Assembly: GCA_021735645.1 (NCBI GenBank)
Contig: JAIPGP010000004.1
Coordinates: forward strand, 3,225 to 67,224
Origin: Candidatus Cloacimonadota bacterium
GTDB taxonomy: Bacteria; Cloacimonadota; Cloacimonadia; Cloacimonadales; TCS61
Length of the DNA stretch: 64,000 nucleotides
Reading direction: 5' to 3'
Under the pieces are notes generated by a model. The model saw only the letters and a program-made list of their open reading frames with translations. It ran no database searches and had not been told where the DNA came from. The position numbers were made by a program, and so were the translations under genes. This document shows positions 3,817 through 55,957 of this stretch, piece by piece (the first letter of the stretch is position 1; each line of letters begins with the position of its first letter).

Positions 3817-3880
3817 CTTTCGCGGTTCAAATAACGTGAAGGTCAGAAAGTTTGAAGATTTGAGGGTTTGATGTAAACTT
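3817..3880. repeat. 64-bp dispersed repeat, copy 1 (CTTTCGCGGTTCAAATAACGTGAAGGTCAGAAAGTTTGAAGATTTGAGGGTTTGATGTAAACTT)
   Basis: Identical except for 1 nt to 4272-4335 in the same intergenic region. Confidence 0.9.
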
Positions 3881-3956
3881 GACTCGTAGTTAAAAATTAG
3901 TTCGTCTTGTTAGCATTGGCTTGATAGGGCGTAATCCATGAAGCCTATTCGCTGCC

Positions 3957-4211
3957 ATAAAATATCTTACATTACATTACCTTGTTCGCGTTTGTTCGGT
4001 TTGTTCGCGGCTAAATTATCTTCACATTATAATCGTAGCTTAATCCCGGATTAAGCATTAATTTCCATCAAACTGGAAAGTATAAAATATCTTACATTAC
4101 AATACCTTGTTCGCGTTTGTTCGGTTTGTTCGCGGCTTAAAATTATCTTCACATTATAATCGTAGCTTAATCCTCCCGGATTAAGCATTAATTTCCATCA
4201 AACTGGAAAGT
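3957..4211. repeat. tandem duplication, two units of about 125 and 130 bp
   Basis: Unit 1 is 3957-4081 and unit 2 is 4082-4211, differing by small indels. Each unit contains ATAAAATATCTTACATTAC, a TTGTTCGnn x3 nonamer array, ATCTTCACATTATAAT, the palindrome GCTTAATCC(C)GGATTAAGC and TTCCATCAAACTGGAA. Confidence 0.9.
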
Positions 4212-4271
4212 TTGATCTACATCTAACTTACCTTCTTTCTTCGCATTACATTTTTTCGCGTAATTTCGCGC

Positions 4272-4335
4272 CTTTCGCGGTTCAAATAAAGTGAAGGTCA
4301 GAAAGTTTGAAGATTTGAGGGTTTGATGTAAACTT
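4272..4335. repeat. 64-bp dispersed repeat, copy 2
   Basis: Matches 3817-3880 with one mismatch. It is preceded by a TTTCGCG x3 array (4254-4280). Confidence 0.9.
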
Positions 4336-9659: not shown

Positions 9660-12600
9660 TTATTTGATTAAAATGATTTTCTTGGTAATATCAAGATTAC
9701 GAGCTTTCAATCTGGCAAAATACATTCCTGTACCTGTAGTTTTACCTGAAGCATTTCTTCCATCCCAGACTACAGAATGATTACCCTTATCAAGATGTTC
9801 ATTGACCAATTCCCTGACTAATTGCCCTTTGATATTATAAATACTGAGATTTATCTCAGTGTTTTCACTCAAATTAAATGAAAGGGTTGTCGAAGGGTTA
9901 AATGGATTAGGATAGCTTTTTAAAACTGTCACAGCATTCCCGAAATTATCTTCAGGTTTTTCTCTTGCTGATGAATAAACTTGAATATCATCAAAGGCAA
10001 ATCCGTCATAACCGATAATCTCATTATCGTAATGCTGAAATTTAACAACGTAATGTGAATTTAGATCCCAGGTAAGATTCGCTGCAATTGCTGATATATC
10101 CAACACTACATTTGTCCATGTTTTATCTTCATGATGCTCACCATTAATATCATAGATTTTTACAAAATTCAATCCCGCATCCTTAGAGAGGTAAATTCCG
10201 TCTCCAGCCTGATATTCATCAGCGAAATCTCTCCACCAGAAATCAAGTTCTACATCAGTTTCATCCTCAAGGTCCAAATATAAAAATGCCCTGTTATACA
10301 CATAAACTCCAGTTGTATCACTTGACATAACAAGATATTCCTGGCCCCCATGAGCATACCCATAATCAGAAGTGACTTCAATCAAACCATGTGCATCACT
10401 GGATTCAATATCCCAGTAATCATCCAGACCTGATTCGAAATCTATACTATAGGGAAGTTCAGCATAGTTTGAATAGATTTGAATATCATCAAAAGCAAAG
10501 CCATCGCTACTTATTGGAAAATTATCATACTGTTCGAATCTGATAATGAAATTATTGTTATATTCCAATCCTGCCGTGTTTATGGCTGCATCAAGATCTA
10601 TCACTATATTTTCCCAGCCACTGCCATTAATTAATGAATAAATTTTACTGAAGTGATCTCCATTGTCATCTGATATGAATACGCCATCATAATAATGAGT
10701 TTCATCATTAAATTCCCTCCACCAGAAATCAAGCATCAATCTGTCTTCGCCTGTGAGATTTAGATGTAAATCTGCCTTGTTGTATACATATTCATAGAAT
10801 GTATTTGAGTCCATGGTCATATGCTTTGTTCCACTATGAGGGGAATTATCTGAAGTAATTAAAATTCTGCCATAAGTCGGATCTGTCTCTAATCTCCAAT
10901 TCTTATCCAGCCCCTCCTCGAATCCCATCGAATAAGGTACTGTAGCATATGTCTTCAAATAACGGTATTCCCTTAAATCCTGAACGTAGTTTGCCCTGTT
11001 GGCTGTTATTATCCAGTTATCACCAACTGAGCTATTAAATTGATAAGGTGATATCCCACGTCCCTGGAGCACTCCTGCATCATTTATTACACTTACAAGT
11101 GCTTCAACAGGATTACCCTGAGTATCAAAAACTTCAAATTCAGGATATGGATTAACAGGGTCTACAATGATATTTTCACTAAGAACAAGTTGCCTGGCTT
11201 CATCAGACCATATACTCAAACTTGGATCTCCGAATAAGGTATAACCTAAATATATTAACCTGTACAAATACATTGAAAAGAGATTGTCATATAAATGCCA
11301 GGCTTCATTAGTTATATATCCCAAAGTATGTTCATCGTCAATAAACTGTAAATCCAGATATTCCTGTACTATAAATCGTGAAATACTCGGATAATCGGTT
11401 GCCGATGAGGCATAGATTGCTACTGGACCACCCACGTGATTAAAAAATACTTCATTGATACAATTCTCTGCATTATAAACCGTCACAGGTTCAGTTTCCA
11501 CCCAATAGTCTGACCAGCCATTGGGTCCCAAATTACAGATGACTTCGTCATATTCATCTCTGGCACAATCCTGGGAAGAACTTATATAATTCAAGTCCAT
11601 TGTTCTACATGATGCTATCCAGGTAAAGTATGTATTCCCAAGTGATTGTGGTAAAACATCTTCAAGCTGCAGGTAACTCTCTGCTGGAGTTGTGTAGAAA
11701 TATTTCCATTCACCATCATGGGCTCCACCTACCTGTAGTTCATAATAACAACTCCCTTCATCTACTTTATTAGTATTTATGCTTAAAGATTGCTTATGAT
11801 GACCAAAACCCTGCTCGTAGGCTGAATCGTTATGATCAAACTCACTGTCCAGGATAGTAAATTGATCCACTCCATGCCATACTCCATATAAAAATGAGTA
11901 ATCCCTGGACTGAAGCACATCTACCACTTCAGTAGCTGGACCATTTACTACGTCAACTAAATCTTCACATAACAATGATTCACAGCTAATAGTATTTCCA
12001 ACATGGGTCATTATATCACTCACAAAAGAATCGTATAGATCATAAGAATCATTTTTTGGTACATTTGTGGATATAAAACTCATCCTGGCAACATCATTAA
12101 TATCATTCGTCCGATAATTCTGGTACTTGGTTATATAATTTTCAACCTCAGTAGAATTACTTACTGGTAATCGACCCACGTAAAGATCAATATCAGTATC
12201 TATGTCCATTATATCATCATCCTGAGGCCAGACTGATAATACATTACTATAATAAAAATCGGTTGATGCAGTAATAGTACTTCCTAAATGGTCATATACT
12301 ATTTGATGCGACGGAACTAAATCAGTACTACCTCCGATTATCACATATTGCAAGCTTGGATATGTCGTTTTCCGGGCTGCCAGCCAGTTTCTTATTGCTG
12401 TAGAAGTTGAATCTGTGGTTGCTAATGTGACTACATCTGTCACTATTCCTTCTTCAGTCTTGATCTCTGCAAACTCTTCAAAATCATCTTCCAATGCATC
12501 AACCGTAATGATTACTAACTCTGCAGCAAGTGATCGGTTATCTCTCAACTCTTGATGATTAATTTTGTGCTCTGTATTCTCCATCGATGAAATTATGGTC

Positions 12601-16630: not shown

Positions 16631-16669
16631 ACCAGTTGCCCATCACGTAGCACCTGAGCATTTCGCATT

Positions 16670-16705
16670 GTCCATAATGTCCATATTGTCCATTGTGTCC
16701 ATAAA
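16670..16705. repeat. tandem 9-bp array, 4 units (GTCCATAAT GTCCATATT GTCCATTGT GTCCATAAA)
   Basis: Read directly. It begins 40 nt after the stop of 16100..16630 and is preceded by CATTTCGCATT. Confidence 0.9.
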
Positions 16706-16812: not shown

Positions 16813-18849
16813 ATGAGTAACAATCCATTAATTGAATTAAAGCGCGTAGGTAAATATGGTGCTATACCCTTTAATGAGATCACACAGGAACATTTTTTGC
16901 CGGCGATCGAGCATGGCTTGCAAGAAGCAGAAGCTAAACTGGAAACGATAAAGAACAACCCGGATAAGGCAAATTATGATAATACCTTACGGGCTATGCA
17001 GGAGCTTTCCGAAGTATCGGATATAGCTTCAACAGTATATTTTAATCTGATGAGCTGCGAATCTGATGATGAATTTAAGCAGCTTGCCCAGGAAATAGCC
17101 CCAAAATTATCGCTATTCTCCAGCAAAATGATCTCTGATCCAATACTTTTTGAACGCGTGAAATCTGTATATGAACGTCGTGAAACTATAGGACTCACCA
17201 GTCAGCAGCGTCGCTTAGTAGAGAAGCAGTATCGTGGATTTATTCGTAATGGTGCCTTGCTGAGTGATGAAGATAAACAGAAGCTGCAGGAAATTGATGT
17301 GGAGCTTTCGCAGCTTGGTCCCAAATTCGGACAAAATGTTCTGGGTGCTACCAATGCCTGGGAAAAGCATGTAATTGATGCTGAAGCAGTAGCTGGTATC
17401 CCGGAAAATGCTTTGAAGGCAGCCGCTTTTAGAGCCAGACAAAAAGGATATAAAGAAGGCTGGTTATTTAACCTGCAGATTCCCAGCGTATTGCCGGTAC
17501 TCACTTATTGCAGCAATCGGGCTTTACGGAAAGACGTTAATAGTGCTTATTCCAGCCGAGCTTATAAAGATGATTTTGATAACCAGGAAATTCTTAAACG
17601 TATCTCCTGTCTCAGATACAAAAGAGCAGAGCTTCTGGGTTACAAGAGCCATGCCGAAATAGTTCTGGAAGAGCGCATGGCACAAACCCCGGAAACTGTT
17701 ATGAGTTTTCTGGACAGATTATATGATGCCAGCATCGAGCCGGCTAAGATGGAGCTGGCAGAAATGCACGCCTTTGCCAGAGAACTGGATGGCATAGAAA
17801 AAATGAAGCCGTGGGACTTGATCTATTACGCTGAAAAGCTGAAACAGCTGAAATTTGATTATAATGCTGAGGAACTGCGTCCTTATTTTAAGATGGAAAA
17901 TGTGGTAAGCGGAATATTCAAAGTAGCAGAAAAACTATATGGCATAAGATTCAATTCTGTAGATGATGTACCCCGCTATCATGAGGATGTGCAGGTGTTT
18001 GAAGTTACAGAAGCTGATGAGAGCTATATTGGTCTGCTCTATCTGGATTTGTTCCCCCGCGAAACCAAGCGAGGAGGAGCCTGGATGACAACATTTCAAA
18101 CCCAGGGATACAGCTATGGTAAAGATAGGCAACCTCACGTATCTATTGTTACCAATTTTACTCCTTCAACCGAAGACACTCCTTCTCTGCTGAGTTTAGA
18201 TGAAGTAACTACTCTCTTCCATGAATTTGGTCATTCGCTACATGGCTTGCTTTCCAATGTGAATGAAGCTGCCCTGGCAAGCCCAAATGTCTATTGGGAC
18301 TTTGTGGAACTGCCTTCTCAGATCATGGAAAACTGGGCAACTGAGAAAGAAACCCTAGCATTGTTTGCTTATCATTATGAAACGGGAGAATTGATCCCTG
18401 ATGATCTGATCGAGAAGGTAAAAAAATCGAAATCTTTTAATGCCGGCAGCAACTCCTTGAGACAAATAGGTCTGAGTTTACTGGATATGGCATGGCATAA
18501 TGGCAATACCTGTGATATAGAAGACGTATATACCTATGAAAAGAAGGCTATAGCTAAAACCAGCCTCCTGCCCCCTCTGGCTGGAAGAAATACTTCCTGT
18601 TCATATTCACATGTATTTGCCGGTGGTTATTCTTCCGGATATTATTCTTATAAATGGGCAGAAGTTCTGGAAGCAGATGCTTTTCAACTTTTCCTGGAAA
18701 AAGGGATATTCGATAGCGATACTGCCGCTGCATTCCGTAAAAACGTTCTGGCAGCGGGTAATACAGAAGAGCCTATGGACTTGTTCGTTAAATTCAGAGG
18801 ACGTAAACCAGATCCTGATGCTTTGCTGAAAAGAGTGGGTCTAAAATAA
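16813..18849 (+). CDS. dcp: M3-family zinc metallopeptidase (peptidyl-dipeptidase Dcp / oligopeptidase A type)
   Basis: 678 aa. HEFGHSLH zinc motif with a downstream E. The length and overall pattern (ALRKDVNSAY, YYAEKLK, GGAWM) are typical of Dcp/PrlC. Confidence 0.85.
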   Translation: MSNNPLIELKRVGKYGAIPFNEITQEHFLPAIEHGLQEAEAKLETIKNNPDKANYDNTLRAMQELSEVSDIASTVYFNLMSCESDDEFKQLAQEIAPKLSLFSSKMISDPILFERVKSVYERRETIGLTSQQRRLVEKQYRGFIRNGALLSDEDKQKLQEIDVELSQLGPKFGQNVLGATNAWEKHVIDAEAVAGIPENALKAAAFRARQKGYKEGWLFNLQIPSVLPVLTYCSNRALRKDVNSAYSSRAYKDDFDNQEILKRISCLRYKRAELLGYKSHAEIVLEERMAQTPETVMSFLDRLYDASIEPAKMELAEMHAFARELDGIEKMKPWDLIYYAEKLKQLKFDYNAEELRPYFKMENVVSGIFKVAEKLYGIRFNSVDDVPRYHEDVQVFEVTEADESYIGLLYLDLFPRETKRGGAWMTTFQTQGYSYGKDRQPHVSIVTNFTPSTEDTPSLLSLDEVTTLFHEFGHSLHGLLSNVNEAALASPNVYWDFVELPSQIMENWATEKETLALFAYHYETGELIPDDLIEKVKKSKSFNAGSNSLRQIGLSLLDMAWHNGNTCDIEDVYTYEKKAIAKTSLLPPLAGRNTSCSYSHVFAGGYSSGYYSYKWAEVLEADAFQLFLEKGIFDSDTAAAFRKNVLAAGNTEEPMDLFVKFRGRKPDPDALLKRVGLK

Positions 18850-29947: not shown

Positions 29948-32900
29948 ATGCGTAAAATGATATTATTATTATTGAGTTTGTGCTTAGTTGCCGGACTGTC
30001 AGCCAGCAGGTTTGAAGGTGATGTTAAAAGCTGGGCAGCGGAAGATTTCATCGGTTTTGACCTGGTGGGAGATAGTAATGGAACAGCAGGAGACATCACT
30101 TCTGCCTACATTTACCAGGATACCGGGAACCTCTATCTGCGACTGAGCTTTGCTGATATGGTAACTCGAGTGGATAACCGGATGGTAAATGACAATTTTG
30201 CCCGGGCAGATATGATGCTCACAATTATGGTATTGAATAATGACAATATTCAGATCAAAGAATCATTTTCTCTTAATGAAAAAAACGGAACTATTAATAA
30301 CCTGAGCTGGCTGAGAACTCCTCAGAACAATCTGCTGGAATTAAAACTACCAGCCCTGAAAAGTGACAGAAAAGACCTGCTGATCAGTTTCAGACTGCAG
30401 AAAAATAATCAGCTTATTGATGAATTTTCTACTACCGGGCGCGAAAACCGTGATACTGGTAATTGTGCTTTTGTCCATCATGGCAATCAGGGACTCACCT
30501 ATACAGAAGTATTTTATGGCAGTGGCTCACATCCCCAGGGACTGGATGGCAGCGGTTTTGATGAAGTATTAGAGGTGCATGAAGCTACTGATGTACCAGG
30601 AAACTTTCACATGAGCGGTACCTTGATGCCGGCTGCCCAGTGGCACGATCCGCAATTTAATGACTGGTTGAGCAATATGGTCACGGATGGCACAGCCTCT
30701 ATGATGACCTCTGCTTTGGGACAGCATATTATGCCCTTTGTGCAGAATAATATGAATGACTGGGCTGTGGCAGTGGAAAGCGATATGGTGGAATACCGTT
30801 ATAATTACCAGCCACATGTTGCCTGGGTGCCCGAACGCGTCTGGCTCGCTTTGGGTCAGTATCCTGATGCCGGAGTTGTAGATAACTGGCTGGGTAATAA
30901 CTGGACGCAGCATGGCGTTTGGGGCGTGGTATTAGATGATGGTCCACATTTAAACGGATATGATAATCATAAGATACACTGGATGAGCAATGGTGTGGGT
31001 ATTGACCTGCGAGTGATACCTATTGATAACACCTTTGTGGGCAATATGCACTATGACGCGGGAGCTGCCATGAATAGAATAGCATCTATGGGACAGTATG
31101 ATATCTGCGTATATGGAACTGACTGGGAAGTGGCAGCAGAAATGAATGAACATGCCTGGAACGGCACTGAAGACACATATTTTCTGGATAACTACCAGAT
31201 GGTTTTATGGTATTGTCACGATAACTATCCGGGCGTAAATGTCTGGAAGCTCGATGATGCGATCCAGAATGCTGATTTTAATGGCACGCAAGCTAATATT
31301 ACTCCCGGAACTTACGGTCTGTTAGGTGGAGAAGGCGGCTATGGCGGCAGTAATAATAGCTGGTACACAAGCTGGGCAGGAGCAGCCTCACATTCAGATT
31401 TTCATATTCCCGCCTGGACTTATGGTTATATCTGGAACAATGCTTATGAAAACCTCATGAACTGCCCTGATAATAATCTTTCGCAACTGGGCTGGTACAC
31501 TTTGATGATAAATCTGCATGAAACCGGCTGGCATGACAGCGGTGACATCTCCGGCTGGGAACACCGCTATTCCAGTCATATTAAAAACGCTAATGTATAT
31601 GCCGAAGCATCCCGCTGGGCAGCAGGGCAGTATGAACTTACCACAAATGCTTACTTCAACGATATAGACCGTGATGGCGTGGATGAAATTGTCATGCACA
31701 ATGACAAAAACTATTTTGTGTTTGAAAGTATTGGAGGTAGAGCTGCGTGGGTATTTGCCAAAGACGGATTTGGCAACGCCTGGGCAGTTGTTGGCTCTGA
31801 TGTGGCATATTATTCCGATACAGACGGTGATTATAATGAAGGATCAAATAATCATGTTGCTGCCTTTAGCGATACATATCCTAATTACCAGAACGACCTT
31901 TATAGTATGAATATTATTTCCGTCAATGATGATGAAGTGGTGGTAGAATTTAGCCACAATGATGTAGTGCGTATTGCAACTCTTATCACTGGCAACAGCT
32001 ACCTTGATATGGCATATGATGGAGACGGAGATTTTTATATCAAACATGGATTCACGGCAGACCTGTTGGACATCATCTGGAATGGGAAAAGCCATTTGCA
32101 GAGAATGTGGGGCGATTTTGGTGGCTACTGCGGTAGAAGAAATTCAGCTTCAGGTGCTACTGTCGCTGCCGTGTTAGGTTCTGCTGGCGGTGAACATAAT
32201 ATGGAATTTGAAGGAACTCTGGTTCAGGGTGATGAAATTCATGGTCCCGAACATTTCCATTTCTATCTATATGCAGGCTGGACAAGTGAACCTTATGATA
32301 TGAATTTCAATAAAGTTACAGAGCTGGACGATCTGGCTGCACAACTTTCTGATGATAATCCACCTGCCGTTGAACTTGGAGCTGCCCTGCAGCTTAATCA
32401 GCACCTGGTGCAAATAGTGATGACAGAAGCTGTAACTCCTGCTTCAGCAACTAATATTGCTAACTTTACATTTACTGGAGAGATCAGTAGTTATGATCTT
32501 GTGAATGTTGAGCTTACTCACAATAATCGCAAAATAGTTCTGTTGTTTGATGATGAGTTACCGGATGAGGTTAGTGGATCAATTATCTTAAGCGCTATAG
32601 AAGACTTGAGTGGTAATCCAGTAGCTGATGGTAATCTGGCAGAACTTACTGATTATATTACTCCGCATCTTGTTGGCACCATAAACTCCTGGACTCCCTC
32701 AAACCACGATTATGATCTGGTGTGCCATGATAATATGCTCTGGTCAGTAGATGTTTTACTGGCTGCCGGTACGCACGAATATAAAGTGATAGAATCTAAT
32801 GCCTGGGATGGCAGTGACTGGCCCTCAGCTAATCAGGTGATAGAACTTAGCGAAGCAGGTGAAATCACGATCTGGGTGAATTGCGGTTTATTCCCGGGTG

Positions 32901-33469
32901 CAAATGGATTTGACGGCTATGTCTGCCATAGTACTAATCCACCAATTGTCTGTGGAGATTTCATGAGTGAGCTTGGTGGCATAGACTGGGATCAAACCAG
33001 TGATATCACAGCTATGAATGATAATGGAGAAGCTGGTGACCTGGTAGCTGGCGACGGCATTTTCAGCAGAGCACTGGAGCTTGGGACCGGAAACTGGGAA
33101 TTTAAAATTGTGCTTAATAATAGTTGGGAACAAGGAACCACTGGCGAGAATCTTTTTATCAATCTGAATGAACCTGCAACTATCATATTTACTTATAACT
33201 TTATCGATAACCGGGTAAGCTGGCAGGACGGTAATCAAAGCATGGGTTATGGCGATATTGATAATAATGGCTATGTGGAATCTTATGATGCTGCCCTGAT
33301 CCTCCAGTACTTCGTGGGTATCGACCCTCCAGGTGCACCCCTGCCCTGGCTGGACTGGCAGTTATTACGCGCCGATGTAGATGGTAATGGCGCGGCTGAA
33401 GCCTATGATGCCTCTCTCATCCAGAGATTCGTGGTAGGTATGATTGATCATTTCCCAGTAGAAGAATAG
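29948..33469 (+). CDS. secreted GH57-like alpha-glucan-active enzyme with beta-sandwich (CBM-like) modules and a C-terminal dockerin
   Basis: 1173 aa with a signal peptide. GH57-like blocks FVHHGNQG, NFHMSGTLMP, GQHIMPF and AWVPERVW. DUF1926-like DIDRDGVDEIVMHND...GGRAAWVF. Two about 90-aa starch-binding-like modules. Type-I dockerin duplicate GDIDNNGYVESYDAALILQYFVG / ADVDGNGAAEAYDASLIQRFVVG. Confidence 0.7.
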   Translation: MRKMILLLLSLCLVAGLSASRFEGDVKSWAAEDFIGFDLVGDSNGTAGDITSAYIYQDTGNLYLRLSFADMVTRVDNRMVNDNFARADMMLTIMVLNNDNIQIKESFSLNEKNGTINNLSWLRTPQNNLLELKLPALKSDRKDLLISFRLQKNNQLIDEFSTTGRENRDTGNCAFVHHGNQGLTYTEVFYGSGSHPQGLDGSGFDEVLEVHEATDVPGNFHMSGTLMPAAQWHDPQFNDWLSNMVTDGTASMMTSALGQHIMPFVQNNMNDWAVAVESDMVEYRYNYQPHVAWVPERVWLALGQYPDAGVVDNWLGNNWTQHGVWGVVLDDGPHLNGYDNHKIHWMSNGVGIDLRVIPIDNTFVGNMHYDAGAAMNRIASMGQYDICVYGTDWEVAAEMNEHAWNGTEDTYFLDNYQMVLWYCHDNYPGVNVWKLDDAIQNADFNGTQANITPGTYGLLGGEGGYGGSNNSWYTSWAGAASHSDFHIPAWTYGYIWNNAYENLMNCPDNNLSQLGWYTLMINLHETGWHDSGDISGWEHRYSSHIKNANVYAEASRWAAGQYELTTNAYFNDIDRDGVDEIVMHNDKNYFVFESIGGRAAWVFAKDGFGNAWAVVGSDVAYYSDTDGDYNEGSNNHVAAFSDTYPNYQNDLYSMNIISVNDDEVVVEFSHNDVVRIATLITGNSYLDMAYDGDGDFYIKHGFTADLLDIIWNGKSHLQRMWGDFGGYCGRRNSASGATVAAVLGSAGGEHNMEFEGTLVQGDEIHGPEHFHFYLYAGWTSEPYDMNFNKVTELDDLAAQLSDDNPPAVELGAALQLNQHLVQIVMTEAVTPASATNIANFTFTGEISSYDLVNVELTHNNRKIVLLFDDELPDEVSGSIILSAIEDLSGNPVADGNLAELTDYITPHLVGTINSWTPSNHDYDLVCHDNMLWSVDVLLAAGTHEYKVIESNAWDGSDWPSANQVIELSEAGEITIWVNCGLFPGANGFDGYVCHSTNPPIVCGDFMSELGGIDWDQTSDITAMNDNGEAGDLVAGDGIFSRALELGTGNWEFKIVLNNSWEQGTTGENLFINLNEPATIIFTYNFIDNRVSWQDGNQSMGYGDIDNNGYVESYDAALILQYFVGIDPPGAPLPWLDWQLLRADVDGNGAAEAYDASLIQRFVVGMIDHFPVEE

Positions 33470-33478
33470 AAATATTTG

Positions 33479-33562
33479 TCTGAATCAGGATTTACAGGAT
33501 TTAAGATATTTACAGGATTAATGAAAGGAGAATGATATAAATACTGTAAATCCAGATTCAGA
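33479..33562. repeat. 19-bp-arm inverted repeat enclosing a 9-bp-periodic array
   Basis: TCTGAATCAGGATTTACAG (33479-33497) pairs with CTGTAAATCCAGATTCAGA (33544-33562) with one mismatch. Internal array AGGATTTAC AGGATTTAA GATATTTAC AGGATTAAT (33487-33522). Confidence 0.85.
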
Positions 33563-33617: not shown

Positions 33618-34857
33618 GTGAATTGGACGGCATATATGTATATTGAAAGAGATTTACAAGATTATATCTTGAGGATCAACAAGTCCTTCTTTGCCCTTTT
33701 CCTTACTGGTGCCCGGCAAGTTGGTAAAACAACTTTACTTGAGCATCTTAGTGAAGATAAACGAAGATATATCACCCTTGATGACCCAGTATTAAAGGAG
33801 ATGGCAATTAATGATCCATCGATGTTCCTGCAAAGATTTCCAGCACCTCTGTTTATTGATGAAATTCAGTATGCGCCTGAGTTGTTTCCATACCTGAAAA
33901 TTCAGATCGATTCTTTACAGATTAATGGGTCATACTGGTTGAGTGGTTCGCAGCAGTTCTCTTTGACGAAAAATGTATCTGAATCATTAGCTGGAAGAAT
34001 AGCAGTTCTTAATCTTTATGGTTTAAGCCAGGCAGAACTTGATAATTCAGAAATAAAAAACACTGTTTTTACCTAAACCAGATGTTTTGGATCAGCGTTC
34101 TGTAGCTGATACGCAGCTTGATCTCGCAGGGGTGTATCAGCGAATATTCAGAGGACAGATGCCAGCTTTACATTCTGAGCAAAAGCCAGATACTTATCCA
34201 TTTTACAGTTCATATATCCAAACCTATATCCAGAGAGATGTTCGGTCATTTTTAAAAATCGGAGATGAGATGAGTTTTTACCGCTTTCTGCGTGCTGCAG
34301 CAGCACGAACAGGGCAACTTCTGAATAAGTCTGATCTTGCCCGTGTTGCTGGAATTTCTCCAACTACTGCCGAGAATTGGCTTTCCATTCTGCGAGCATC
34401 AGGTATCATCTACATTATGGAACCCTACTACAGAAATATAACTAAGCGACTGATTAAAAGTCCTAAACTCTATTTTCTCGATACCGGACTTTGCGCTCAT
34501 CTTACAGGCTGGCATAATTGGGAAACATTGGAAGCTGGTGCATTAAGCGGAGCTATTCTTGAAACATGGGTAGTTTCGGAAATCATTAAAAACTTTAATA
34601 ATAATGGTGTCCCGGCAAATTTCTATTATCTACGAACAAAAGACGGTAGTGAAATTGATCTGCTAATCGAATTAAATGGAGTTATCTATCCTTTGGAAAT
34701 AAAAAAAACTACTCACCCTTCAAAAAATGATATCGGACATTTTCATCTGCTGCAGAAAAATGGTTGTAACACAGCTACTGGAGGTGTTATCTGCCTTTGT
34801 AAACACCTGCTGCCTATTGATGAAAAAAATTATTCGATTCCCATAGGGATTATTTAA
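33618..34857 (+). pseudogene. AAA+ ATPase with DUF4143-type C-terminal domain, split by a frameshift near 34055-34076
   Basis: ORF 33618..34076 carries Walker A (LTGARQVGKTTLL) and Walker B-like (LFIDEIQ). ORF 34087..34857 lies in a different frame and carries the DUF4143-like part (KLYFLDTGL...). That second frame is open from 34057. The switch lies at the A6/T5 runs. Confidence 0.7.
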
Positions 34858-34905
34858 TCACTTACGCGTCTGTTTTGGGATTTTCGTGGTTATTATTAGA
34901 CTTTA

Positions 34906-35249
34906 ACATTTTGTGCAGTACCTTACAATTAATATTCTGTCAATTTTTGGCAGAAAAGATTTTCAACCACTGACCACACTGACTTCACTGACGAAAATAA
35001 TGCCAGAATAAATCCGTTCTTTTCTTACATTGTCAGTGCTGTCCGTGACGTCCGGTGATAATCTTTCAATTGGTTTCGGTTTATCCGAGTTAGGCTTTTG
35101 CAAAGAGTGCTAATCCCGATACAGGGACAAGTGCAGTTGGATTTACCCATCACAGTTCACTGTTCACTGGTTAAATATTTAATATCATTTCCTATCTTAT
35201 TTTGTGCCAGATACTTGGTGCTATTTGTGAAATACTACTGCATAAAGTG
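34906..35249. repeat. about 345-bp dispersed repeat, copy R1
   Basis: Near-identical to 43251-43603, with a handful of substitutions plus 3-nt and 7-nt indels. Contains CACTGAC x3 (34967-34993), GTCnGTG x3 (35032-35058) and TTCACTG x2 arrays. Confidence 0.9.
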
Positions 35250-35286
35250 CGTTTAATCATCCCAGACCAGGGATGGTCTGGTTACA

Positions 35287-35400: not shown

Positions 35401-35897
35401 ATTTAAATCAAAGTGAAGTGAAATAAATTAATCTATGATTATTCTGTCAAGTGAAAAAGTAATATCATAGCTAATAATAGAAATCTGGTATCCCCCTGTT
35501 TTTCTGAAAACCGCTATAGATATCTCAAGAACTTATAAATGGTTAGGCGTATTTTATAAGCAAATTTTTCACTCTCATTAACACCGGGTTTCTAACCTGG
35601 TGAAAAGCGAAAAAGAATATGGATTGAGTGGCTTCAGCCACTTCTTATAATAATAATTCATACCATTCTGGATTTTAGTATAACAAACTCAAATACAGAG
35701 GGAAATCACTGAAGTGATTATACATCGTTCATCATTAACCCCTAAGTTAATTTAGGGGTTAATGAGAATGATTTATTTGATGCTATTGGTAAACTAAAAT
35801 GAAATCAATTTCAGGAGGATACCAGCTAATAATAGAAATACCTTGTAAAGAAAATCAGGGATTATTTTTTTAGCAAAAATGCCTAAAGGAAATAATT

Positions 35898-38441
35898 ATG
35901 ATGAAAGATAAAAAACATAAAAGCCAAGTATTGCCAGTACTTGGCATCAGCTTCACTGTATTACTGATACTGATAATCCTCCTGCCCATCCTGCTCAAAA
36001 ACCAGATAGCCGATAAAGCTCTGGAAATAGCCAATAGCAATGTCAATGCCCGAATAAAAGTGAAAGGTGTGTCTCTATCCATCTTTAAAAGCTTCCCTGA
36101 TCTGCAGTTTGGCATGACCGGTTTGCAAGTGAGTGGCATTGGCAGACAGGCAGGTACCGACCTGGCAAAAATTGGCTCAATATCGCTTGATCTTGATCTG
36201 AAGCAGGCGCTAAAAAAACAAATCAAGATCAATTCCATTGTTATTGATAATCCGGAAATTAATGCCGTTGTGCTGGCAGATGGCAGTGCGAACTGGGATA
36301 TTGCCAAAACAGAAAAAGAAAAGACCCAGGCAGTAAAAGAAGAGAAACAGCCTTCCAATAGCAATCTCAGTGTGATCATGCAGGATTTTCAGATCAATAA
36401 TGCCTCAATCAGATTTACTGACCAGCAGAGTAACACGTCCGCTGAGCTTGATAACCTGAATTTTAGTCTCAATGGCGATCTATCAGCGGTAAATTCTCAG
36501 TTGAATCTAAAAACTGATATTGAAAAGATCAATTTCACCCAGGCTGCTGTGAAAATGGCAAAAGACCTGAATCTCGATTTTATGGCAACAATTGCCATTG
36601 ATCTGGAAAATATGAAATTCACTTTCATAGAAAATACACTCAGCCTGAATGAACTGAACTTAGGCTTTGATGGCAGCGTCCAGATGCTGCCAGATGGCAG
36701 CATAATCACTGACCTTACTTTCCAGACGGAACAGACAGATTTCAAGACTCTGCTTTCCTTTGTACCGGCAGTATTTATGACAGGTTTTGAAGACCTGAAA
36801 ACTGAAGGTAATCTGCAATTCAATGGTTTCGCCAAAGGAACGATGATCGGTGAAAGCCTGCCGGCATTTAGTATAGATTTACTGGTGACTGATGCCATGG
36901 TGCAATATCCTGACCTGCCAGGGTCTATCAATAACATCAATATTGACGTGAAAGTAGCTAATCCCGGTGGCGATGCCGATCTCACTACTATAGCAGTAAA
37001 TCGTTTTGAGCTTTTTATGCAGGACAATCCTGTTTCTGCCAAATTTAGACTCGCTACTCCTGTCAGCGATCCGGATATCAGCAGTCAGTTCAATCTGAAG
37101 CTTGACCTGAACACGCTCAAAGATGTAATTCCTCTGGAAAGTATGAATCTGAGCGGAAATATAGATGCAGACATGAAACTGAACACCAGACTCTCTACTA
37201 TTGAAAAAGAAGATTATAGTAATGTGGATATGCAGGGTGGAGTAACATTGACGAATTTTGTGTTCAGCAGTGCAGATTTCACCCGGGATGTCACGATCAA
37301 AAAAGCAGACCTGAAATTCACTCCCCGCTATGTGGAATTGAAACAGTTTTCTGCTAAGGTAGCCAATAGTGATCTCAGTTTAAGCGGTAAAATAGAAAAT
37401 TTCATTCCCTTTGCCTTACAGGGCAAGGTGCTAAAAGGTACTCTTAATATAAATTCTTCTTTGATTGATGCTAATCAGTTAATGACTCTAAGCTCTGCTC
37501 CGGAAACCGCTGCCCCAGCTCTAGAAGCTAAACCAGCCGCTCAAGTTGTGATCATTCCCGATAATCTGGACTTGACCCTGAAATGTGACCTGAAAAAGAT
37601 TCGCTTCGATAATATGGAAATCACTAAACTTACCGGTAATTTCGCTCTTAAAAACACAATAGCTGACCTCTCTGAACTGCGGTTTGATGCCATGAAAGGC
37701 GGTATTCACATTTCGGGGAATTATCAGGGATATTCCAGACAGTCCGCTACTACACAGGCAAAATTAAAACTCTGGAAAATCGATGTAAACAGTGCTTTCA
37801 ACTCCTTTTCCGTTTTGCAGGAAATGATGCCGGTACTGGGCTACAGCAGTGGAAATATCTCCGGAACAATGAATCTGGATGCCAGGCTTGATCAGCAGAT
37901 GCAGCCTGTATTAACTTCTATCAATAGTGAGGGTACTCTGCAAACCAGTGATATCATAATAGAAAACTCACCTGCCCTGAATGATATTGCCGCTAACCTG
38001 AAGAATCCTAAATTCAAAAAAGTGAAACTCTCTGCCGCTGATGTGTCATATACTATGACAAATGGCAACCTGACAATTTCTCCTTTCACCACTAATTTTT
38101 CAAAATCATCTGTAGAAATATCCGGTACTGTCAACGTTGATCAGCAGATGGATATTAAACTACAAACCAGACTTGCCGTCAATGACCTGGGGGACGAAGC
38201 TAGAAAACAAATAGATGACCTGGTAAAACAGATCAATAAAGCCGGTCTTAGCGTGCATACTCCTGAGTATCTGGATATCACAGCAAAACTGGAAGGCACT
38301 GTTAATAAACCAAAACTTGTTCTCGATTGGCAAACCAGCTTTGATGCTGTCCTTAAATCATTGCAGAATCAGGTGGTTGAAGCTGGTAAGGACAAAGTGA
38401 AAGATGAAGCTATCGACCTGCTGAAAGGTCTATTTAAGTAA
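35898..38441 (+). CDS. AsmA-family / DUF748-like outer-membrane-biogenesis protein
   Basis: 847 aa. Single N-terminal TM anchor (VLPVLGISFTVLLILIILLPILL). The rest is long, repetitive and beta-rich, with low-complexity N/S/T/D sequence typical of AsmA-like proteins. Confidence 0.65.
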   Translation: MMKDKKHKSQVLPVLGISFTVLLILIILLPILLKNQIADKALEIANSNVNARIKVKGVSLSIFKSFPDLQFGMTGLQVSGIGRQAGTDLAKIGSISLDLDLKQALKKQIKINSIVIDNPEINAVVLADGSANWDIAKTEKEKTQAVKEEKQPSNSNLSVIMQDFQINNASIRFTDQQSNTSAELDNLNFSLNGDLSAVNSQLNLKTDIEKINFTQAAVKMAKDLNLDFMATIAIDLENMKFTFIENTLSLNELNLGFDGSVQMLPDGSIITDLTFQTEQTDFKTLLSFVPAVFMTGFEDLKTEGNLQFNGFAKGTMIGESLPAFSIDLLVTDAMVQYPDLPGSINNINIDVKVANPGGDADLTTIAVNRFELFMQDNPVSAKFRLATPVSDPDISSQFNLKLDLNTLKDVIPLESMNLSGNIDADMKLNTRLSTIEKEDYSNVDMQGGVTLTNFVFSSADFTRDVTIKKADLKFTPRYVELKQFSAKVANSDLSLSGKIENFIPFALQGKVLKGTLNINSSLIDANQLMTLSSAPETAAPALEAKPAAQVVIIPDNLDLTLKCDLKKIRFDNMEITKLTGNFALKNTIADLSELRFDAMKGGIHISGNYQGYSRQSATTQAKLKLWKIDVNSAFNSFSVLQEMMPVLGYSSGNISGTMNLDARLDQQMQPVLTSINSEGTLQTSDIIIENSPALNDIAANLKNPKFKKVKLSAADVSYTMTNGNLTISPFTTNFSKSSVEISGTVNVDQQMDIKLQTRLAVNDLGDEARKQIDDLVKQINKAGLSVHTPEYLDITAKLEGTVNKPKLVLDWQTSFDAVLKSLQNQVVEAGKDKVKDEAIDLLKGLFK

Positions 38442-38480
38442 TTTGGGTTAGTGGTTAGTGGTTAATCAGTGAGACGTCCT

Positions 38481-38617
38481 CTGAGACCTTGCGGATGGTC
38501 TTGCACCTCCGCAATGGTCGACCATTGAGAAGAGATCACCAGTCTAATGTCCAGCATATTACCTTAGATACTAAGTCAACCATTGCGGAGGTTTAGCAAC
38601 CATCCGCAAGGTCTCAG
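38481..38617. repeat. MITE-like inverted-repeat element (about 40-bp arms, about 56-bp loop)
   Basis: CTGAGACCTTGCGGATGGTCTTGCACCTCCGCAATGGTCG (38481-38520) pairs with CAACCATTGCGGAGGTTTAGCAACCATCCGCAAGGTCTCAG (38577-38617). Related partial copies lie at 55811-55849 and 14021-14084. Confidence 0.85.
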
Positions 38618-39008
38618 CTGGTTAATACGTATTGCATTACATTCCTCTGTGTCCTCTGTGCCTCTGTGGTAAAAAGTCTTACATTACATTAGCTGTACTC
38701 AGCGTCCGTGTTGTCAGTGTAGTCCGTGGTTGTAAAAATCTTACATTGCATTATCCATATTAATCGATAAAATCCGTGGCTAATGAGTAATTTTGAAGTT
38801 TGAATTGAATGTAATATAATATAATGTAATCAGACCAGGTCTGGGTAGGCAAACGACTCACGACATTAAGCATCAACTCATAAATATCTGTAGATTTAAA
38901 CTTGTTCTTTGCCTTATATCTGTGTTGTTCATCGCTGCATATCAGAAGTTATTGAAGCTCTTCACGCCTGGCATAATTCAAAACCTCTGCGTGCAATGTA
39001 ACAGATAT

Positions 39009-39842
39009 TTATAACGCAATGCTTAGCTGCTTTCGCTCCGGCAAACCAGCTAATATAGCACCTGTCAGCATCAGAAGGCAGCCGGCTAATGCCTGCAGCG
39101 TCATGCTTTCCCCCAAAATCAGGTAACCACCCAAAACGGCAAATGCGCCTTCCAGACTCAAAATCACCGCACAATCAGCTGCCGGTGCCTTACGCTGAGC
39201 AAAAAACTGCAGTGTATAGGCTATTCCCACCGATACCAGACCACCATATAATATTGCTGTCAGTGCCTGCTGCCAGCCAGAAGTTTCAGCTTTTTCGATC
39301 ACACCCCAGCCAGATAAGCTGAGTATTCCGCAGACAGCAAACTGCAAAAATGCCAGACGAAAAGGCGAATATTGCCGGGCATACTGCCCCACCATCCGCA
39401 CATGGATGGCAAACAGCACAGCACACATCAGCACCAGGCTGTCACCTAAATCTATATCTACTTTCCCATGAATACTCAATAAGTACAATCCGCCAATTGC
39501 CGCTATTACGCCCAGCCAGGTTCTGATTCCAGGATTATCACCTGCGAAAACTCCCAGTATCGGGACAAAGATCACATACAATCCTGTGATAAAACCCGCC
39601 TTGCCGGCAGTAGTATAGATTATCCCGATCTGCTGCAAAGTGGCTGCCATAAAGAGTACTACTCCCAGCAGCACTCCTGCCCGTAATTCGCTGCGGCTGA
39701 ATTTTACCCCGCTAAAGGGCAATATTGCCAACGCTCCTAAGAGGAATCGAAACCCATTAAAGAAAAAAGGTCCTACAAATTTCATGCCATGACGTTGGGC
39801 AACAAAAGCAAAACCCCATAGCATGGCAGCAGTAAGCAGCAT
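39009..39842 (-). CDS. EamA/DMT-family permease
   Basis: 277 aa from the first ATG, with about 9-10 TM helices and a LTAAMLWGFAFVAQR EamA start. The frame is open a further 15 codons upstream without a canonical start. Confidence 0.8.
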   Translation of the reverse strand: MLLTAAMLWGFAFVAQRHGMKFVGPFFFNGFRFLLGALAILPFSGVKFSRSELRAGVLLGVVLFMAATLQQIGIIYTTAGKAGFITGLYVIFVPILGVFAGDNPGIRTWLGVIAAIGGLYLLSIHGKVDIDLGDSLVLMCAVLFAIHVRMVGQYARQYSPFRLAFLQFAVCGILSLSGWGVIEKAETSGWQQALTAILYGGLVSVGIAYTLQFFAQRKAPAADCAVILSLEGAFAVLGGYLILGESMTLQALAGCLLMLTGAILAGLPERKQLSIAL

Positions 39843-41197: not shown

Positions 41198-41260
41198 CTT
41201 ATAGGATTCATAGGGCTTATAGGGCTTATAGGGCTTATAGGGCTTATAGATCTTATAGGA
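41198..41260. repeat. tandem 9-bp array, 7 units (CTTATAGGn)
   Basis: CTTATAGGA TTCATAGGG CTTATAGGG x3 CTTATAGAT CTTATAGGA. It ends 6 nt from the histidine kinase stop codon (41267-41269). Confidence 0.95.
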
Positions 41261-43120: not shown

Positions 43121-43250
43121 AGCCTACTCCTTTCTTATTTAATAATTTATATTTAAAGATAATTAAGTCAAGTTAAATTCTCTTTAAATCTTTATCTGGC
43201 ATCCACCCATTTTTCTGAACCCTGTAATAGAGATATTATTAATATTTAAT

Positions 43251-43603
43251 ACATTTTGTGTAGTACCTTACAATTAATATTCTGTCAACTTTTGGCAGAA
43301 AAGATTTTCAACCACTGACCACACTGACTTCACTGACGAAAATAATGCCAGAATAAATCCGTTCTTTTCTTACATTGTCAGTGCTGTCCGTGACGTCCGT
43401 GGTTGATAATCTTTCAATTGGTTTCGGTTTATCCGAGTTAGGCTTTTGCAAAGAGTGCTAATCCCGATACAGGGACAAGTGCAGTTGGATTTACCCATCA
43501 CAGTTCACTGTTCACTGTTCACTGGTTAAATATTTATTATCATTTCCTATCTTGTTCTGTGCCAGAAATTTGGTGCTATTTGTGAAATTTTACTGCATAA
43601 AGT
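43251..43603. repeat. about 345-bp dispersed repeat, copy R2
   Basis: See 34906-35249. It sits between the divergent histidine kinase (start 43120) and lipoprotein (start 43667) genes. Confidence 0.9.
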
Positions 43604-43666
43604 GGGATTAAATGTTTATTAATTGACAAACTTAGGATATATTTCTTAATTTTGCTGGAGGTTATT

Positions 43667-51450: not shown

Positions 51451-51630
51451 CCCACTCTCATTAACCCTCAGATTCATCTGGGAAACGGCATACTCCACCC
51501 TATCTAAACACTAATAGTCGCTTCACCTACTTCCCACTCTCATTAACCCCCAGATTTATCTGGGGGACTGCATACTCCACCACCACCCTATCTAAACACT
51601 AATAGTCGCTTCACCTACTTCCCACTTTCC
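51451..51630. repeat. tandem duplication (82-bp + 88-bp units plus a partial third) upstream of gdhA
   Basis: The units start with CCCACTCTCATTAACCC at 51451 and 51533. A third start, CCCACTTTCC, at 51621 abuts the stop codon of 51630..52886. Each unit has a CCCnCAGATTnATCTGGG hairpin. Confidence 0.9.
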
Positions 51631-52886
51631 TAAAACCCCAAAAACTCCCACCCCTGGAACTGCTCATCTATTAGTATCATCCTGCCACCCAGCTTCCCGG
51701 CTATCTGCTCTGCGGATACTCCATCAATTGTAAACCGCTCACTATTAAAGCTGTTACTGGCAAATACTGCCACCTCATCGTCACCCAATATAAGCTGCTT
51801 CTCAATATCACTCCAGGTTAGCAGTCCCGCCACTGTCACGTCCGCACCAAAATAATCATTGAGTATTGACTGCACTCTCGCCTTCCCCGGTAATTCTGCA
51901 TTGATTTCAGCAACTATCTTCCCGATATACTCTTCTGCCAGCAGCCCTGTCACAAAAACCAGCGTCGGCTCTATTTCCCGGATATCAGCAATAAAAACCT
52001 TTTTCTCTTCTGCCCAGTTCATTAAAAGCATCCGTATCATACCAATCCCGTTCTCCAACTGCTCAAAATCCTCATAATACTCAGCATCAGGGATATCCAC
52101 TCCCGCTTTGATATAGATCTCATCTGAACACCGGGTTCGTCTATACCGCGAAGTAGCTGCCAAAATCTGCCCCGATTCTTCAGCAGTAATCACTCGCAAC
52201 TCCTTGAGACCTTCCCGATACTTTGTAAGTCCGACCGGCACTATCCCGATACTTAGACAATTATAGCCCAGACTGTCCAGATCTGCCAGACTCCGCTCCA
52301 GCTCTACCCCATCATTATAACCGGGCACAACTACTATCTGGGTATGAAAAGAAATGTCGTTTTTATCTAAAAACCGCAGCTTTTCCATGATATTGAACTC
52401 TCGATCATAACGCAGCATCTCTTGATGTAATACCGGATTTGTGGTATGCACAGAAATGTATAAAGGACTCAGATTCTGCTCAATTATCTTGCGGTAATCC
52501 CGATCAGTGAGATTGGTAAGAGTGATAAAATTGCCATAATAAAACGAAAAACAGGTGTCATCATCCTTAATATACAGCGTCTCCCGCAGTCCCGACGGCA
52601 TCTGATCTATAAAACAGAATATACAGTCGTTCACGCATTGCCGGCAGAAATGGTCATCTGCGATTATACCTAACGGTTTCTCCCAGCTATCCTGAACCTT
52701 AAATACCTGCAAACTGCCATCCAGCCGCTCTATCTCAAGTTGCAGTTTCTCGTCACCACTGTAATATTTCAAATCTATAAAATCTATTATTCGATGACCA
52801 TTTATTGATAATACCCGCTCGCCAGGAACCAGTCCCAGGCTCTCTGCCCAACTGCCTTCTGCTACTTCTTTTATTCGTAAAGCCAT
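51630..52886 (-). CDS. PDZ-domain plus DUF512-type (radical-SAM-like) protein
   Basis: 418 aa. N-terminal PDZ-like region (GSWAESLGLVPGERVLSINGH). Cysteine cluster CRQCVNDCIFCFIDQMP. Layout matches the DUF512/TIGR03279-type family as recalled. Confidence 0.7.
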   Translation of the reverse strand: MALRIKEVAEGSWAESLGLVPGERVLSINGHRIIDFIDLKYYSGDEKLQLEIERLDGSLQVFKVQDSWEKPLGIIADDHFCRQCVNDCIFCFIDQMPSGLRETLYIKDDDTCFSFYYGNFITLTNLTDRDYRKIIEQNLSPLYISVHTTNPVLHQEMLRYDREFNIMEKLRFLDKNDISFHTQIVVVPGYNDGVELERSLADLDSLGYNCLSIGIVPVGLTKYREGLKELRVITAEESGQILAATSRYRRTRCSDEIYIKAGVDIPDAEYYEDFEQLENGIGMIRMLLMNWAEEKKVFIADIREIEPTLVFVTGLLAEEYIGKIVAEINAELPGKARVQSILNDYFGADVTVAGLLTWSDIEKQLILGDDEVAVFASNSFNSERFTIDGVSAEQIAGKLGGRMILIDEQFQGWEFLGF

Positions 52887-54294: not shown

Positions 54295-54454
54295 TACCTC
54301 CTGTTTTTAATATAAAATAAACATTTAATCTCTATTGCCAACAAATAATTTCCAAAATCCCAAACCTGGGATAGTCTGGGTACAATCTCCCTCAACCACA
54401 AAGTGCCCAAGTTGTAACACAGGGAATGGACAGGGTGGACGTTATGGACATAGA

Positions 54455-54508
54455 GTCTATATTGTCCATAGTGTCTATAATGTCCATAGTGTCTATAATG
54501 TCCATAGC
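54455..54508. repeat. tandem 9-bp array, 6 units (alternating GTCTATAnT / GTCCATAGn, so also 18-bp x3)
   Basis: Read directly. It has the same GTCCATA core as 16670-16705 and is preceded by the inverted copy TATGGACATAG. Confidence 0.95.
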
Positions 54509-54564
54509 ACTTCTTCGCAAAATTTTCTGTTGACTCTCATTAACAAGATAAAGAATTTATCATC

Positions 54565-55749: not shown

Positions 55750-55957
55750 GTTTTTCATAAGATATCCAACCAGATAAATTACCTAACGGTTGTACTTGCG
55801 TAACGAGTGGCAACCATTGCGAAGGTTTAGCAACCATTCGCAAGGTTTAACTTGCTGGTTACTTTACAGGCATCCCCCTGCTTTATTTACTAATAACAAC
55901 ATGTAACACGCTAATTAATATAGATTTACAGGTTATTATTTCTTGAAATTGTTCTTT

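Follow-up and report, generated by a model that had tools for sequence, protein, structure and literature searches.

Ordered direct triplets of REP-arm-like words in Cloacimonadota: an apparently undescribed and probably mobile family of small mosaic repeats

Repetitive extragenic palindromic sequences (REPs) have mostly been studied as palindromes in Proteobacteria. Iterons and a nick site make up the origins of HUH Rep proteins, as found in rolling-circle plasmids and in circular Rep-encoding single-stranded (CRESS) DNA viruses. Small dispersed repeats (SDRs) of Nostoc were reportedly described by Elhai et al. in 2008. Heptamer tandem repeats are known from Calothrix (three heptanucleotides), Nostoc (GGGGAYT) and Xanthomonas (GGGAATC), their function being unknown (PMC4692102). 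The described systems that come closest to the modules treated here are the REPs, with the bacterial interspersed mosaic elements (BIMEs), the REPINs and the REP-associated tyrosine transposases (RAYTs, TnpA_REP), especially the 'atypical' subclass 2.6 (PMC6006769, PMC3116915). In the classification of Y1 HUH transposases by Quentin et al. (2018), the REPs of Bacteroidetes-type RAYTs are noted only as 'atypical' structures (PMC6006769). The present work deals with three small non-coding modules standing head-to-tail at 38630-38779 of a 64-kb stretch of contig JAIPGP010000004.1, from a metagenome-assembled genome (MAG) of Cloacimonadota; this whole stretch is called the window. Each module follows one recipe: an A-rich run with (T)CTTACATT(R)CATT, and then three units of about 9 nt, ended by GG. 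The repeat family is apparently undescribed and probably mobile. At a probability of roughly 0.5, the modules are mosaic repeats of a REP/BIME-like kind, in which words from REP arms stand as direct triplets and which a strand-specific RAYT-like enzyme spreads or maintains.

The modules of the flagged site, two of which, with the leader of a third, a sequence-only reading of the window had already seen, are real in the sequence and lie on the + strand. The first opens with a variant of the separator that has no A-run (TATTGCATTACATT, 38630-38643), followed by an array of type C, CCTCTGTGT CCTCTGTG CCTCTGTGG (38644-38669). The second separator (TAAAAAGTCTTACATTACATT, 38670-38690), belonging to dispersed-repeat family D7, leads into a type F module body (38691-38729), made of the 13-nt AGCTGTACTCAGC (38691-38703) and the units GTCCGTGTT GTCAGTGTA GTCCGTGG (38704-38729). 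A near-identical copy of this body occurs at the related locus L090, and its start also in L003 and L108. After a third separator (TTGTAAAAATCTTACATTGCATT, 38730-38752) come ATCCATATT AATCGATAAA ATCCGTGG (38753-38779), which, read against type A copies, are probably a third array in decay, so that the order at the site would be C, F, decayed A.

The shared grammar of constant stretch and array claimed by the sequence-only reading is upheld in the window, in the related contig L003 and in 88 catalogued arrays. The window holds 9 triple arrays of the specific core class, 0.16 being expected, and in 8 of them a single prefix runs through all three units, an outcome found in none of 200 shuffles. 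Generic chains of a 7-mer (at least 3 copies at 8-11-nt spacing) number 21, against some 2.7 in shuffles. In L003 the grammar stands at a different locus, upstream of a tRNA, and reads ...TTGTTCGGT TTGTTCGCGG CTTAAAAATTCTTACATTACATT ... TTTCGCGTAA TTTCGCGGC TTTAGCGG TTAATAAATCTTACATTACATT TTCCGTGTG TTCCGCGG CTTAAAAATTCTTACATT. A scan of metagenome contigs with the pattern TAAAN{0,3}TCTTACATTRCATT gave at least 120 loci, with chained modules at roughly 45 loci among the matches listed; viral contigs served as a control, and the 26 single matches of this pattern in them were taken as chance without inspection for arrays. Proteins sampled from ten array loci fell, in 7 cases, into clusters with Ca. 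Stygibacter australis or frigidus as named members, a distinct genus of Antarctic-lake Cloacimonadota described in a paper that makes no mention of DNA repeats. A literature search for DNA repeats of Cloacimonadota, including searches by sequence string, found none.

The catalogue (n=88, from several genomes and related loci) defines the grammar more closely and supports the idea of a shared one: a constant leader, 2-5 units (mode 3) at 9-10-nt spacing and a terminal GG, with a word that is constant within a module and varies between modules. In 72 of the 88 arrays the cores stand 10/9 or 9/9 nt apart; xCATT lies at most 16 nt upstream in 71, an A-rich run follows directly in 75, and the next separator begins within 16 nt in 65. 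Chains comprise 2-5 modules with one separator, at a period of 47-50 nt. As the arrays close with GG, 0-3 nt and TAAAA..CTTACATT, flowing into the CTTACATT stretch, the so-called leader is equally a trailer, that is, a separator between arrays. Nor are the cores swapped freely, as had been supposed: there are about six recurrent word types, all fitting N-T-Y-N-G-Y-G, namely ATCCGTG (A), TTTCG(C/T)G (B), (C/T)CTCTGTG (C), TTC(C/A)GTG (D), TTGTTCGCG (E) and GTC(C/A)GTG (F), and every type is a dispersed repeat family with its own separator junction (GG-C-TAAAA, GG-TT-AAA or GG-TAAAA). Other short arrays found behind separators are TTTTACA, TCACACCY, TCTCACG and AGTGGAC. The regular expression first suggested for the leader, [CT]TT[AC][CG]CATT, fails to match CTTACATT and was found 8 times against 8.3 expected. 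The CTTACATT octamer by itself is at chance level in the window (6 copies against 3.0 +/- 1.6 expected, 6 of 100 shuffles reaching 6); all six copies are on the + strand, each lying within 20 nt ahead of an array or about 5-10 nt past an array end.

Constancy is unevenly distributed within the arrays. The 2-nt prefix, which lay outside the search pattern, agrees in 96% of the comparisons within arrays and in 27% of those between arrays; for the joints, the 2-3 nt that follow a core, the figure is only 15%. Unit lengths fall in the order 10/9/8. Furthermore, a position-specific variant of the core, CCGTG/CAGTG/CCGTG, recurs in four different prefix types, and it looks as if the prefixes had been changed in concert on this shared scaffold.

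The link to REPs comes from the words themselves. The REPs of RAYT subclass 2.6 read GCACGGAAA-TGC-TTTCCGTGC in Flavobacterium columnare, GCACGGATT-GCA-AATCCGCGC in F. johnsoniae and CCGCGCGAA-TCCT-TTCGCGTGG in F. indicum (PMC6006769 Table S1), and the 3' arms at these RAYT loci equal, respectively, TTTCCGTG (word D), AATCCG[C/T]G (word A) and TTCGCGT/TTTCG[C/T]GG (word B). With about twenty REP families listed, three such matches of 7-8 nt are, as roughly estimated, well beyond chance, and the arrays therefore appear to be built from REP-arm words. The earlier remark that no described class with this structure was known to the reader thus has to be qualified, REP/BIME-type repeats being close to it. 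In common with REPs, BIMEs and REPINs, the modules are short, high-copy and strictly extragenic, with about ten in the 64 kb of the window, every one of them intergenic; one genome contains several sequence families, which form mosaics with linker motifs, and copy content varies between strains. Three word types are the 9-nt REP arms of the Flavobacterium RAYT loci, and the triplets of Bacteroides and Gemmatirosa form hairpins in the manner of REP doublets. Unlike them, the Cloacimonadota modules are direct triplets that are neither palindromic nor folding; their unit is three tandem words, not one arm; the CTTACATT separator chains them head-to-tail, and the alternating orientation of the E. 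coli BIME is absent from these chains. No GTAG/GTGG 5' tag is present and no RAYT gene was found in the window and 1.28 Mb of related DNA.

Gain and loss concern whole modules. At one orthologous locus there is one module in L095, two in L149 and a different array in L053, and the difference is exactly one module, separator to separator; as in BIME-type mosaics, units are joined by a linker and their number varies at orthologous loci. A larger event is seen in a 411-nt composite at 43197-43607, which contains inverted type F arrays around a loop with CTTACATT (43312-43402), and also a heptamer array, (TCACTGT)3-4. On its two sides stand TTTAAATCTTTATC and TTAAATGTTTATT; in L003 the orthologous gap (17869-17990) is empty and has one TTTAAATGTTTATT. 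The second copy of the composite (34862-35251), with the same inverted type F pair and CTTACATT loop at 34967-35058, is flanked by TTTAATCAC and TTTAATCAT. Judged by the features of MITEs (miniature transposable elements with inverted repeats), the composite shows direct repeats at its flanks and is missing from an empty site in L003, yet clear terminal inverted repeats are lacking, and single modules have neither terminal inverted repeats nor a flanking duplication or empty site. Between L113 and L132, which are 96% identical, the difference is a precise insert of 32 nt, CCTGCCGTGCCGTAGCTTTATGCGAAGGATGG, placed in the last unit of a type A array, between atccg and tggc (L113:10700-10800 against L132; compare also L110 and L128). 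ATCCGTG or TTCAGTG arrays carry this insert in some strains and lack it in others, and on its own it does not fold into a hairpin. In some copies decay keeps pace with that of the flanks (L072 compared with L095). Between the window and the Stygibacter loci, nucleotide similarity is confined to the modules and other small repeats, among them a 145-nt hairpin and an element of about 160 nt that flank the flagged modules.

The modules may also prefer one strand. Separate module sites of one contig have nearly always one orientation; between co-directional genes, 12 modules are antisense and 2 sense (11 and 2 without the palindromic site), and modules are often located 1-110 nt from the stop codon of an opposite-strand gene. 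With so few cases and only rough gene calls, this orientation bias is suggestive.

Outside the phylum, BLAST of the flagged region against plasmid records returned the type C triplet, also present in Stygibacter, in several places. A Scytonema plasmid reads ctcatt CCTCCGTGT CCTCTGTG CCTCTGTGG; a Calothrix plasmid has the triplet too, and in Gemmatirosa megaplasmids it takes the form CCACAGAGG ACACGGAGG ACAAGAGGA - loop - CCTCTGCGT CCTCTGTGT CCTCTGTGG TAAAAAG, in at least 39 and at least 32 copies on two megaplasmids. Records of Bacteroides finegoldii and B. ovatus contain the same triplet elements. A 50-kb stretch of B. finegoldii bears several triplet hairpins with different words, among them CACCACAGATT ACACGGATT AACACAGATT - 18 nt - AATCCGTGTT AATCCGTGT AATCTGTGG TG; the arm of this hairpin (AATCCGTGTTAATCCGTGTAATCTGTGG) is identical to the Stygibacter type A array at 26 of 27 positions, and another hairpin reads CCTCTGTGT CCTCAGTGT CCTCTGTGG TG. 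In Bacteroides and Gemmatirosa the triplets are the two arms of intergenic hairpins; the CTTACATT separator and head-to-tail chaining were seen only in Cloacimonadota loci. The triplet is thus common to the Fibrobacteres-Chlorobi-Bacteroidetes (FCB) group and some Nostocales plasmids, being older and more widespread than this Cloacimonadota lineage and Ca. Stygibacter. When plasmid records were searched by BLAST with types A, B and E, or with the 34960-35065 hairpin, there was no match, and phage BLAST gave none either. Beside a triplet hairpin of B. finegoldii lies a second large inverted repeat (L167:1640-1770) of GGTGAGG-type heptamers, gggtccagggtgaggggtggtgagggtagattt ... aaatctaccctcaccacccctcaccctggaccc.

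Three other described systems share part of these features. The heptamers of cyanobacteria and Xanthomonas are likewise tandem units of 7-9 nt, intergenic, often near a gene end and in some cases paired in inverted orientation; on the Scytonema and Calothrix plasmids there is even the type C triplet, and L153 has GGGAYTG and CCCTAAT arrays. Those heptamers, however, are near-perfect iterations of a single unit in variable length, whereas the modules have three 7-nt words, joints that do not repeat, an invariant GG end and separator, and several types in one chain. With the SDRs of Nostoc and with MITEs the modules share very small elements nested in or beside other repeats, a precise 32-nt indel and a 411-nt composite with target duplications, but single modules lack defining terminal inverted repeats. 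The origins of HUH Rep proteins are an analogy only: a conserved short motif stands there beside 2-4 lineage-specific direct repeats, whereas here there are dozens of copies per genome, no hairpin around the constant motif and no Rep gene nearby. In L153, an 88%-identical relative, GGGAYTG/GTGATTG heptamers followed by (CCCTAAT)x7 (600-810) stand upstream of the gene for glutamate dehydrogenase; they resemble the G-rich heptamers that were reported from intergenic DNA of Nostoc and Xanthomonas (PMC4692102). The glutamate dehydrogenase sequence is conserved too strongly to resolve how closely the window organism and Ca. Stygibacter are related.

If the modules are REP/BIME-like non-autonomous elements, their 7-nt words would be recognised by a trans-acting Y1-HUH (RAYT-like) enzyme that works on one DNA strand. 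Such an enzyme would preserve word and prefix but let the joints drift, and would account for the shared direction of the modules within a contig. What the sequences show is the gain and loss of modules, the target duplications, a location shared with other small repeats and the identity of the words; the partner enzyme and its mode of action are inferred. Several observations weigh against this interpretation. The hairpin that defines REPs is lacking, since the flagged modules are non-palindromic and do not fold: neither strand of the region differs significantly from shuffles (z = -0.4 and +0.6). Only the inverted array pairs form hairpins, at 34960-35065 (z = -4.4) and in Bacteroides and Gemmatirosa; the modules are for this reason filed as a variant of the REP kind and not as REP members. 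Moreover, no gene for a RAYT, an IS200-type or another transposase was found in the window and the 1.28 Mb of related DNA. The queries IS608 TnpA and E. coli RayT gave nothing significant in local tblastn, a weak match in L149 being noise; the genes neighbouring the modules are ordinary, with no Y1 transposase adjoining, and there was no Cloacimonadota name among the top relatives of a RAYT from Bernardetia (Bacteroidota). The gain or loss of modules between identical separators could be plain unequal recombination instead of transposition, the concerted prefix change on a shared scaffold is not explained by a simple master-copy model, and the orientation bias amounts to some 13 loci with crude open reading frame (ORF) calls. 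The GT[AG]G foot tag is not at the 5' side, the arrays carrying GTGG or GCGG on the 3' side; published subclass 2.6 REPs of Bacteroidetes are likewise without it (PMC6006769). The Bernardetia RAYT itself has REPs of the ordinary GTAG kind.

A possible but rather unlikely account is that the triplets serve the host, as binding arrays for a protein such as a trimeric or ring-shaped RNA- or DNA-binding factor, with a role in untranslated regions (3' or 5') or at the nucleoid, and with the separator as a common docking or spacing element. It fits the retention of word and prefix with free joints, the conservation of a whole 27-nt array across phyla, the strictly intergenic position, in many cases with a gene end 1-110 nt away and, between co-directional genes, antisense by 12:2, and an 85%-identical orthologous pair in which one array differs at a single joint position. 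It fits poorly with at least six word types chained in variable order in one genome, with modules between convergent genes, as at the flagged site, with the decay of some copies and with presence that is not kept at orthologous loci (the window against L003; L095/L149/L053); no structure and no promoter or terminator signal was detected either. As slippage copies the joints too, a 7-nt word held constant three times over with free joints cannot be explained by slippage alone, the process by which cryptic simple sequence would arise in AT-rich intergenic DNA with no recognition, the (ACATT)n leader being another of its products. It is true that the same genomes have many tandem arrays of period 5-9 (GGTTAGT, TCACTGT, CTTATAGGG, TTTTACA, CCCTAAT), that unit number varies from 2 to 5 and ACATT from 1 to 3, and that intergenic heptamer repeats are known in Nostoc and Xanthomonas (PMC4692102). 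Nevertheless, the near-perfect iteration of a whole unit that marks slippage-type simple sequence repeats is not seen here, with joints agreeing in 15% and words with prefixes in 96%; the same 27-nt arrays, joints included, occur at non-homologous loci and in different phyla, and the order array-GG-A-run-CTTACATT is fixed in 65-75 of the 88 arrays. Slippage is improbable and, as the sole cause, largely refuted.

The concerted prefixes leave room for another, doubtful possibility, a version of the templated process or programmable binding arrays proposed by the sequence-only reading: the triplets might be addressable recognition arrays, with a conserved C-N-G-Y-G x3 scaffold (often CCGTG/CAGTG/CCGTG) on which a 2-4-nt 'address' prefix is rewritten in concert in the three units. 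Such arrays may be read by a matched family of sequence-specific factors or laid down by templated copying, and they may form a cassette-like system common to the FCB superphylum, with the classical REP hairpins as just one of its forms. Templated writing as such, in which a reverse transcriptase or primase-polymerase would copy a 7-nt template three times with untemplated joints beside a fixed primer or anchor (the separator), would account for one word type per array, free 2-3-nt joints, unit lengths falling 10/9/8 and prefixes swapped in concert on a shared scaffold, as well as for the L003 blocks described below, in which an array word and its single downstream inverted copy change together in otherwise homologous blocks. 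We consider it very improbable: no reverse transcriptase or similar gene is near any locus, and the array types are few and copied between loci with joints largely intact, which argues for the dispersal of finished copies and not for repeated de novo writing. Lastly, the alternation of constant and variable parts at a period of 47-50 nt recalls a CRISPR mini-array (short palindromic repeats in clusters, regularly interspaced), with the separators of about 22 nt as repeats and the arrays of about 27 nt as spacers. This is scarcely credible, the 'spacers' being internally repetitive and drawn from about six types at many loci, the chains having only 1-5 units scattered over dozens of sites, and no cas gene being present among the scanned ORFs of the window and its neighbours; a CRISPR array was accordingly rejected.

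Other functional classes were also examined for the modules. Promoter-like and terminator-like sites show no excess over shuffles at the modules, and reading by eye across copies gave no -35/-10, Bacteroidetes -33/-7 or sigma-54 spacing that holds; a role as promoter or terminator was rejected, the signal being at shuffle level. Of the Rfam covariance models, only a tRNA reaches the threshold and nothing appears at the modules even at E <= 1, so with no fold and no Rfam match an RNA element was rejected as well. Small ORFs or peptide repeats were discarded because frames are not kept between types.

The modules of the flagged site occupy a 567-nt gap between convergent genes, one for an AsmA-family protein (35898-38441, +) and one for an EamA transporter (39009-39842, -). 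The AsmA-family protein has relatives in L003, a JGI contig (82% amino-acid identity), and in L005 (60%); against the genome contig collection it retrieved only one Saprospiraceae locus, 31% identical. Directly upstream of the modules lies the 145-nt nested hairpin (38476-38620; DNA fold z = -9.5), which looks REPIN- or MITE-like, as if made of the REP-like motifs ACCTTGCGGATGGT and CCTCCGCAATGGT set in inverted orientation. Further copies of its arms are found at 55811-55846, L153:880-990 and L116:4838-4880. On the other side, the element of about 160 nt (38867-39025) has 25-nt terminal inverted repeats, is 80% identical to Stygibacter L150:2324-2487 and L093:945-1108, and overlaps the last codons and the stop of the EamA ORF; no compensatory changes were found among its three copies. 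With small repeats on both sides of the modules, the AsmA-EamA gap is a mosaic of small repeats, and in L003 it is filled by entirely different ones. Small dispersed non-coding repeats, the modules among them, build up such mosaic DNA between genes both in this Cloacimonadota lineage and in Ca. Stygibacter.

Elsewhere in the window, a two-unit type B module is found at 3794-3825 (+; CTTCACATTAAATTT TTTAGCGGC TTTCGCGG), a separator with a type E array at 3958-4010 (+; TTGTTCGCGT TTGTTCGGT TTGTTCGCGG) and again at 4083-4135 (+), these being copies 1 and 2 of a 125-nt tandem unit, and a type B module at 4239-4280 (+; CTTCGCATTACATT T TTTCGCGTAA TTTCGCGCC TTTCGCGG). The further sites listed by the sequence-only reading all exist; those at 3966 and 4091, however, are not independent, both being copies of this tandem duplication, and the same is true of 35024 and 43369, which lie within the two copies of the dispersed element of about 390-410 nt, the 35024 copy having a 3-nt deletion. 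The site at 16659 is atypical: its leader is merely 'GCATT', and the GTCCATA(nn) x4 array that follows TTTCGCATT (16661-16703, +), without GG end or A-rich trailer, is at best a related array type. At 3898-3957, a TTGTTCG-type array is broken by a block of about 30 nt, cttgatagggcgtaatccatgaagccta, also present in L078, L083, L118, L120 and L150, whose short stem appears to vary compensatorily (AGCT/AGCT, AGCC/GGCT, GGGC/GCCT). The word of the direct array at 16667-16703 returns at 54436-54510, upstream of an MFS transporter gene, where ATGGAC x3 and then GTC(C/T)ATA x6 make a strong hairpin (RNA fold z = -6.1); in Stygibacter, AGTGGAC arrays follow separators.

Several further repeats were recorded. 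CTTATAGGG is repeated seven times at 41199-41259, directly upstream of an M48 peptidase gene, and its reverse complement five times at 1152-1195, directly after the stop of ORF 1199-2851, so that one word stands in opposite orientation relative to the genes. An 88-nt unit (CCCACTCTCATTAACCCCCAGATTCATCTGGG...) present 2.2 times at 51451-51640, with related pieces at 35739-35781 and at the non-orthologous L003:9270-9440, is another dispersed repeat family. A CAGGATTTA-type array at 33476-33527, directly after the stop of ORF 29948-33469, is 87-91% identical in Stygibacter L035, L113 and L132. Adjoining composite copy 2, an AAA ATPase/DUF4143 gene (33618-34857) is split into two ORFs (33618-34076 and 34087-34857) and is absent from the syntenic region of L003. 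In L003 itself, two homologous blocks of about 90 nt (9786-9880 and 5899-5975) have the array words (AATGTTACY)x4 and (AATGTAATA)x3, and in each the single downstream inverted copy fits the local word (GTAACATT and ATTACATT, respectively), which shows array and partner to change together.

What the modules add to the knowledge of REPs is a form in which the 9-nt words are ordered as direct triplets with a constant separator, in a little-known phylum, while triplet-armed hairpins are also found in Bacteroides, a major gut genus. On the practical side, the modules break short-read assemblies, as in the Logan contig with the same AsmA gene, which stops 72 nt past its stop codon, and they could serve as strain markers for Cloacimonadota and Bacteroides. 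Finally, if the link with a Y1 transposase is true, the range of DNA mobilised by such enzymes would be broader, and the modules would offer a clear test case for the joint change of recognition words and enzymes.

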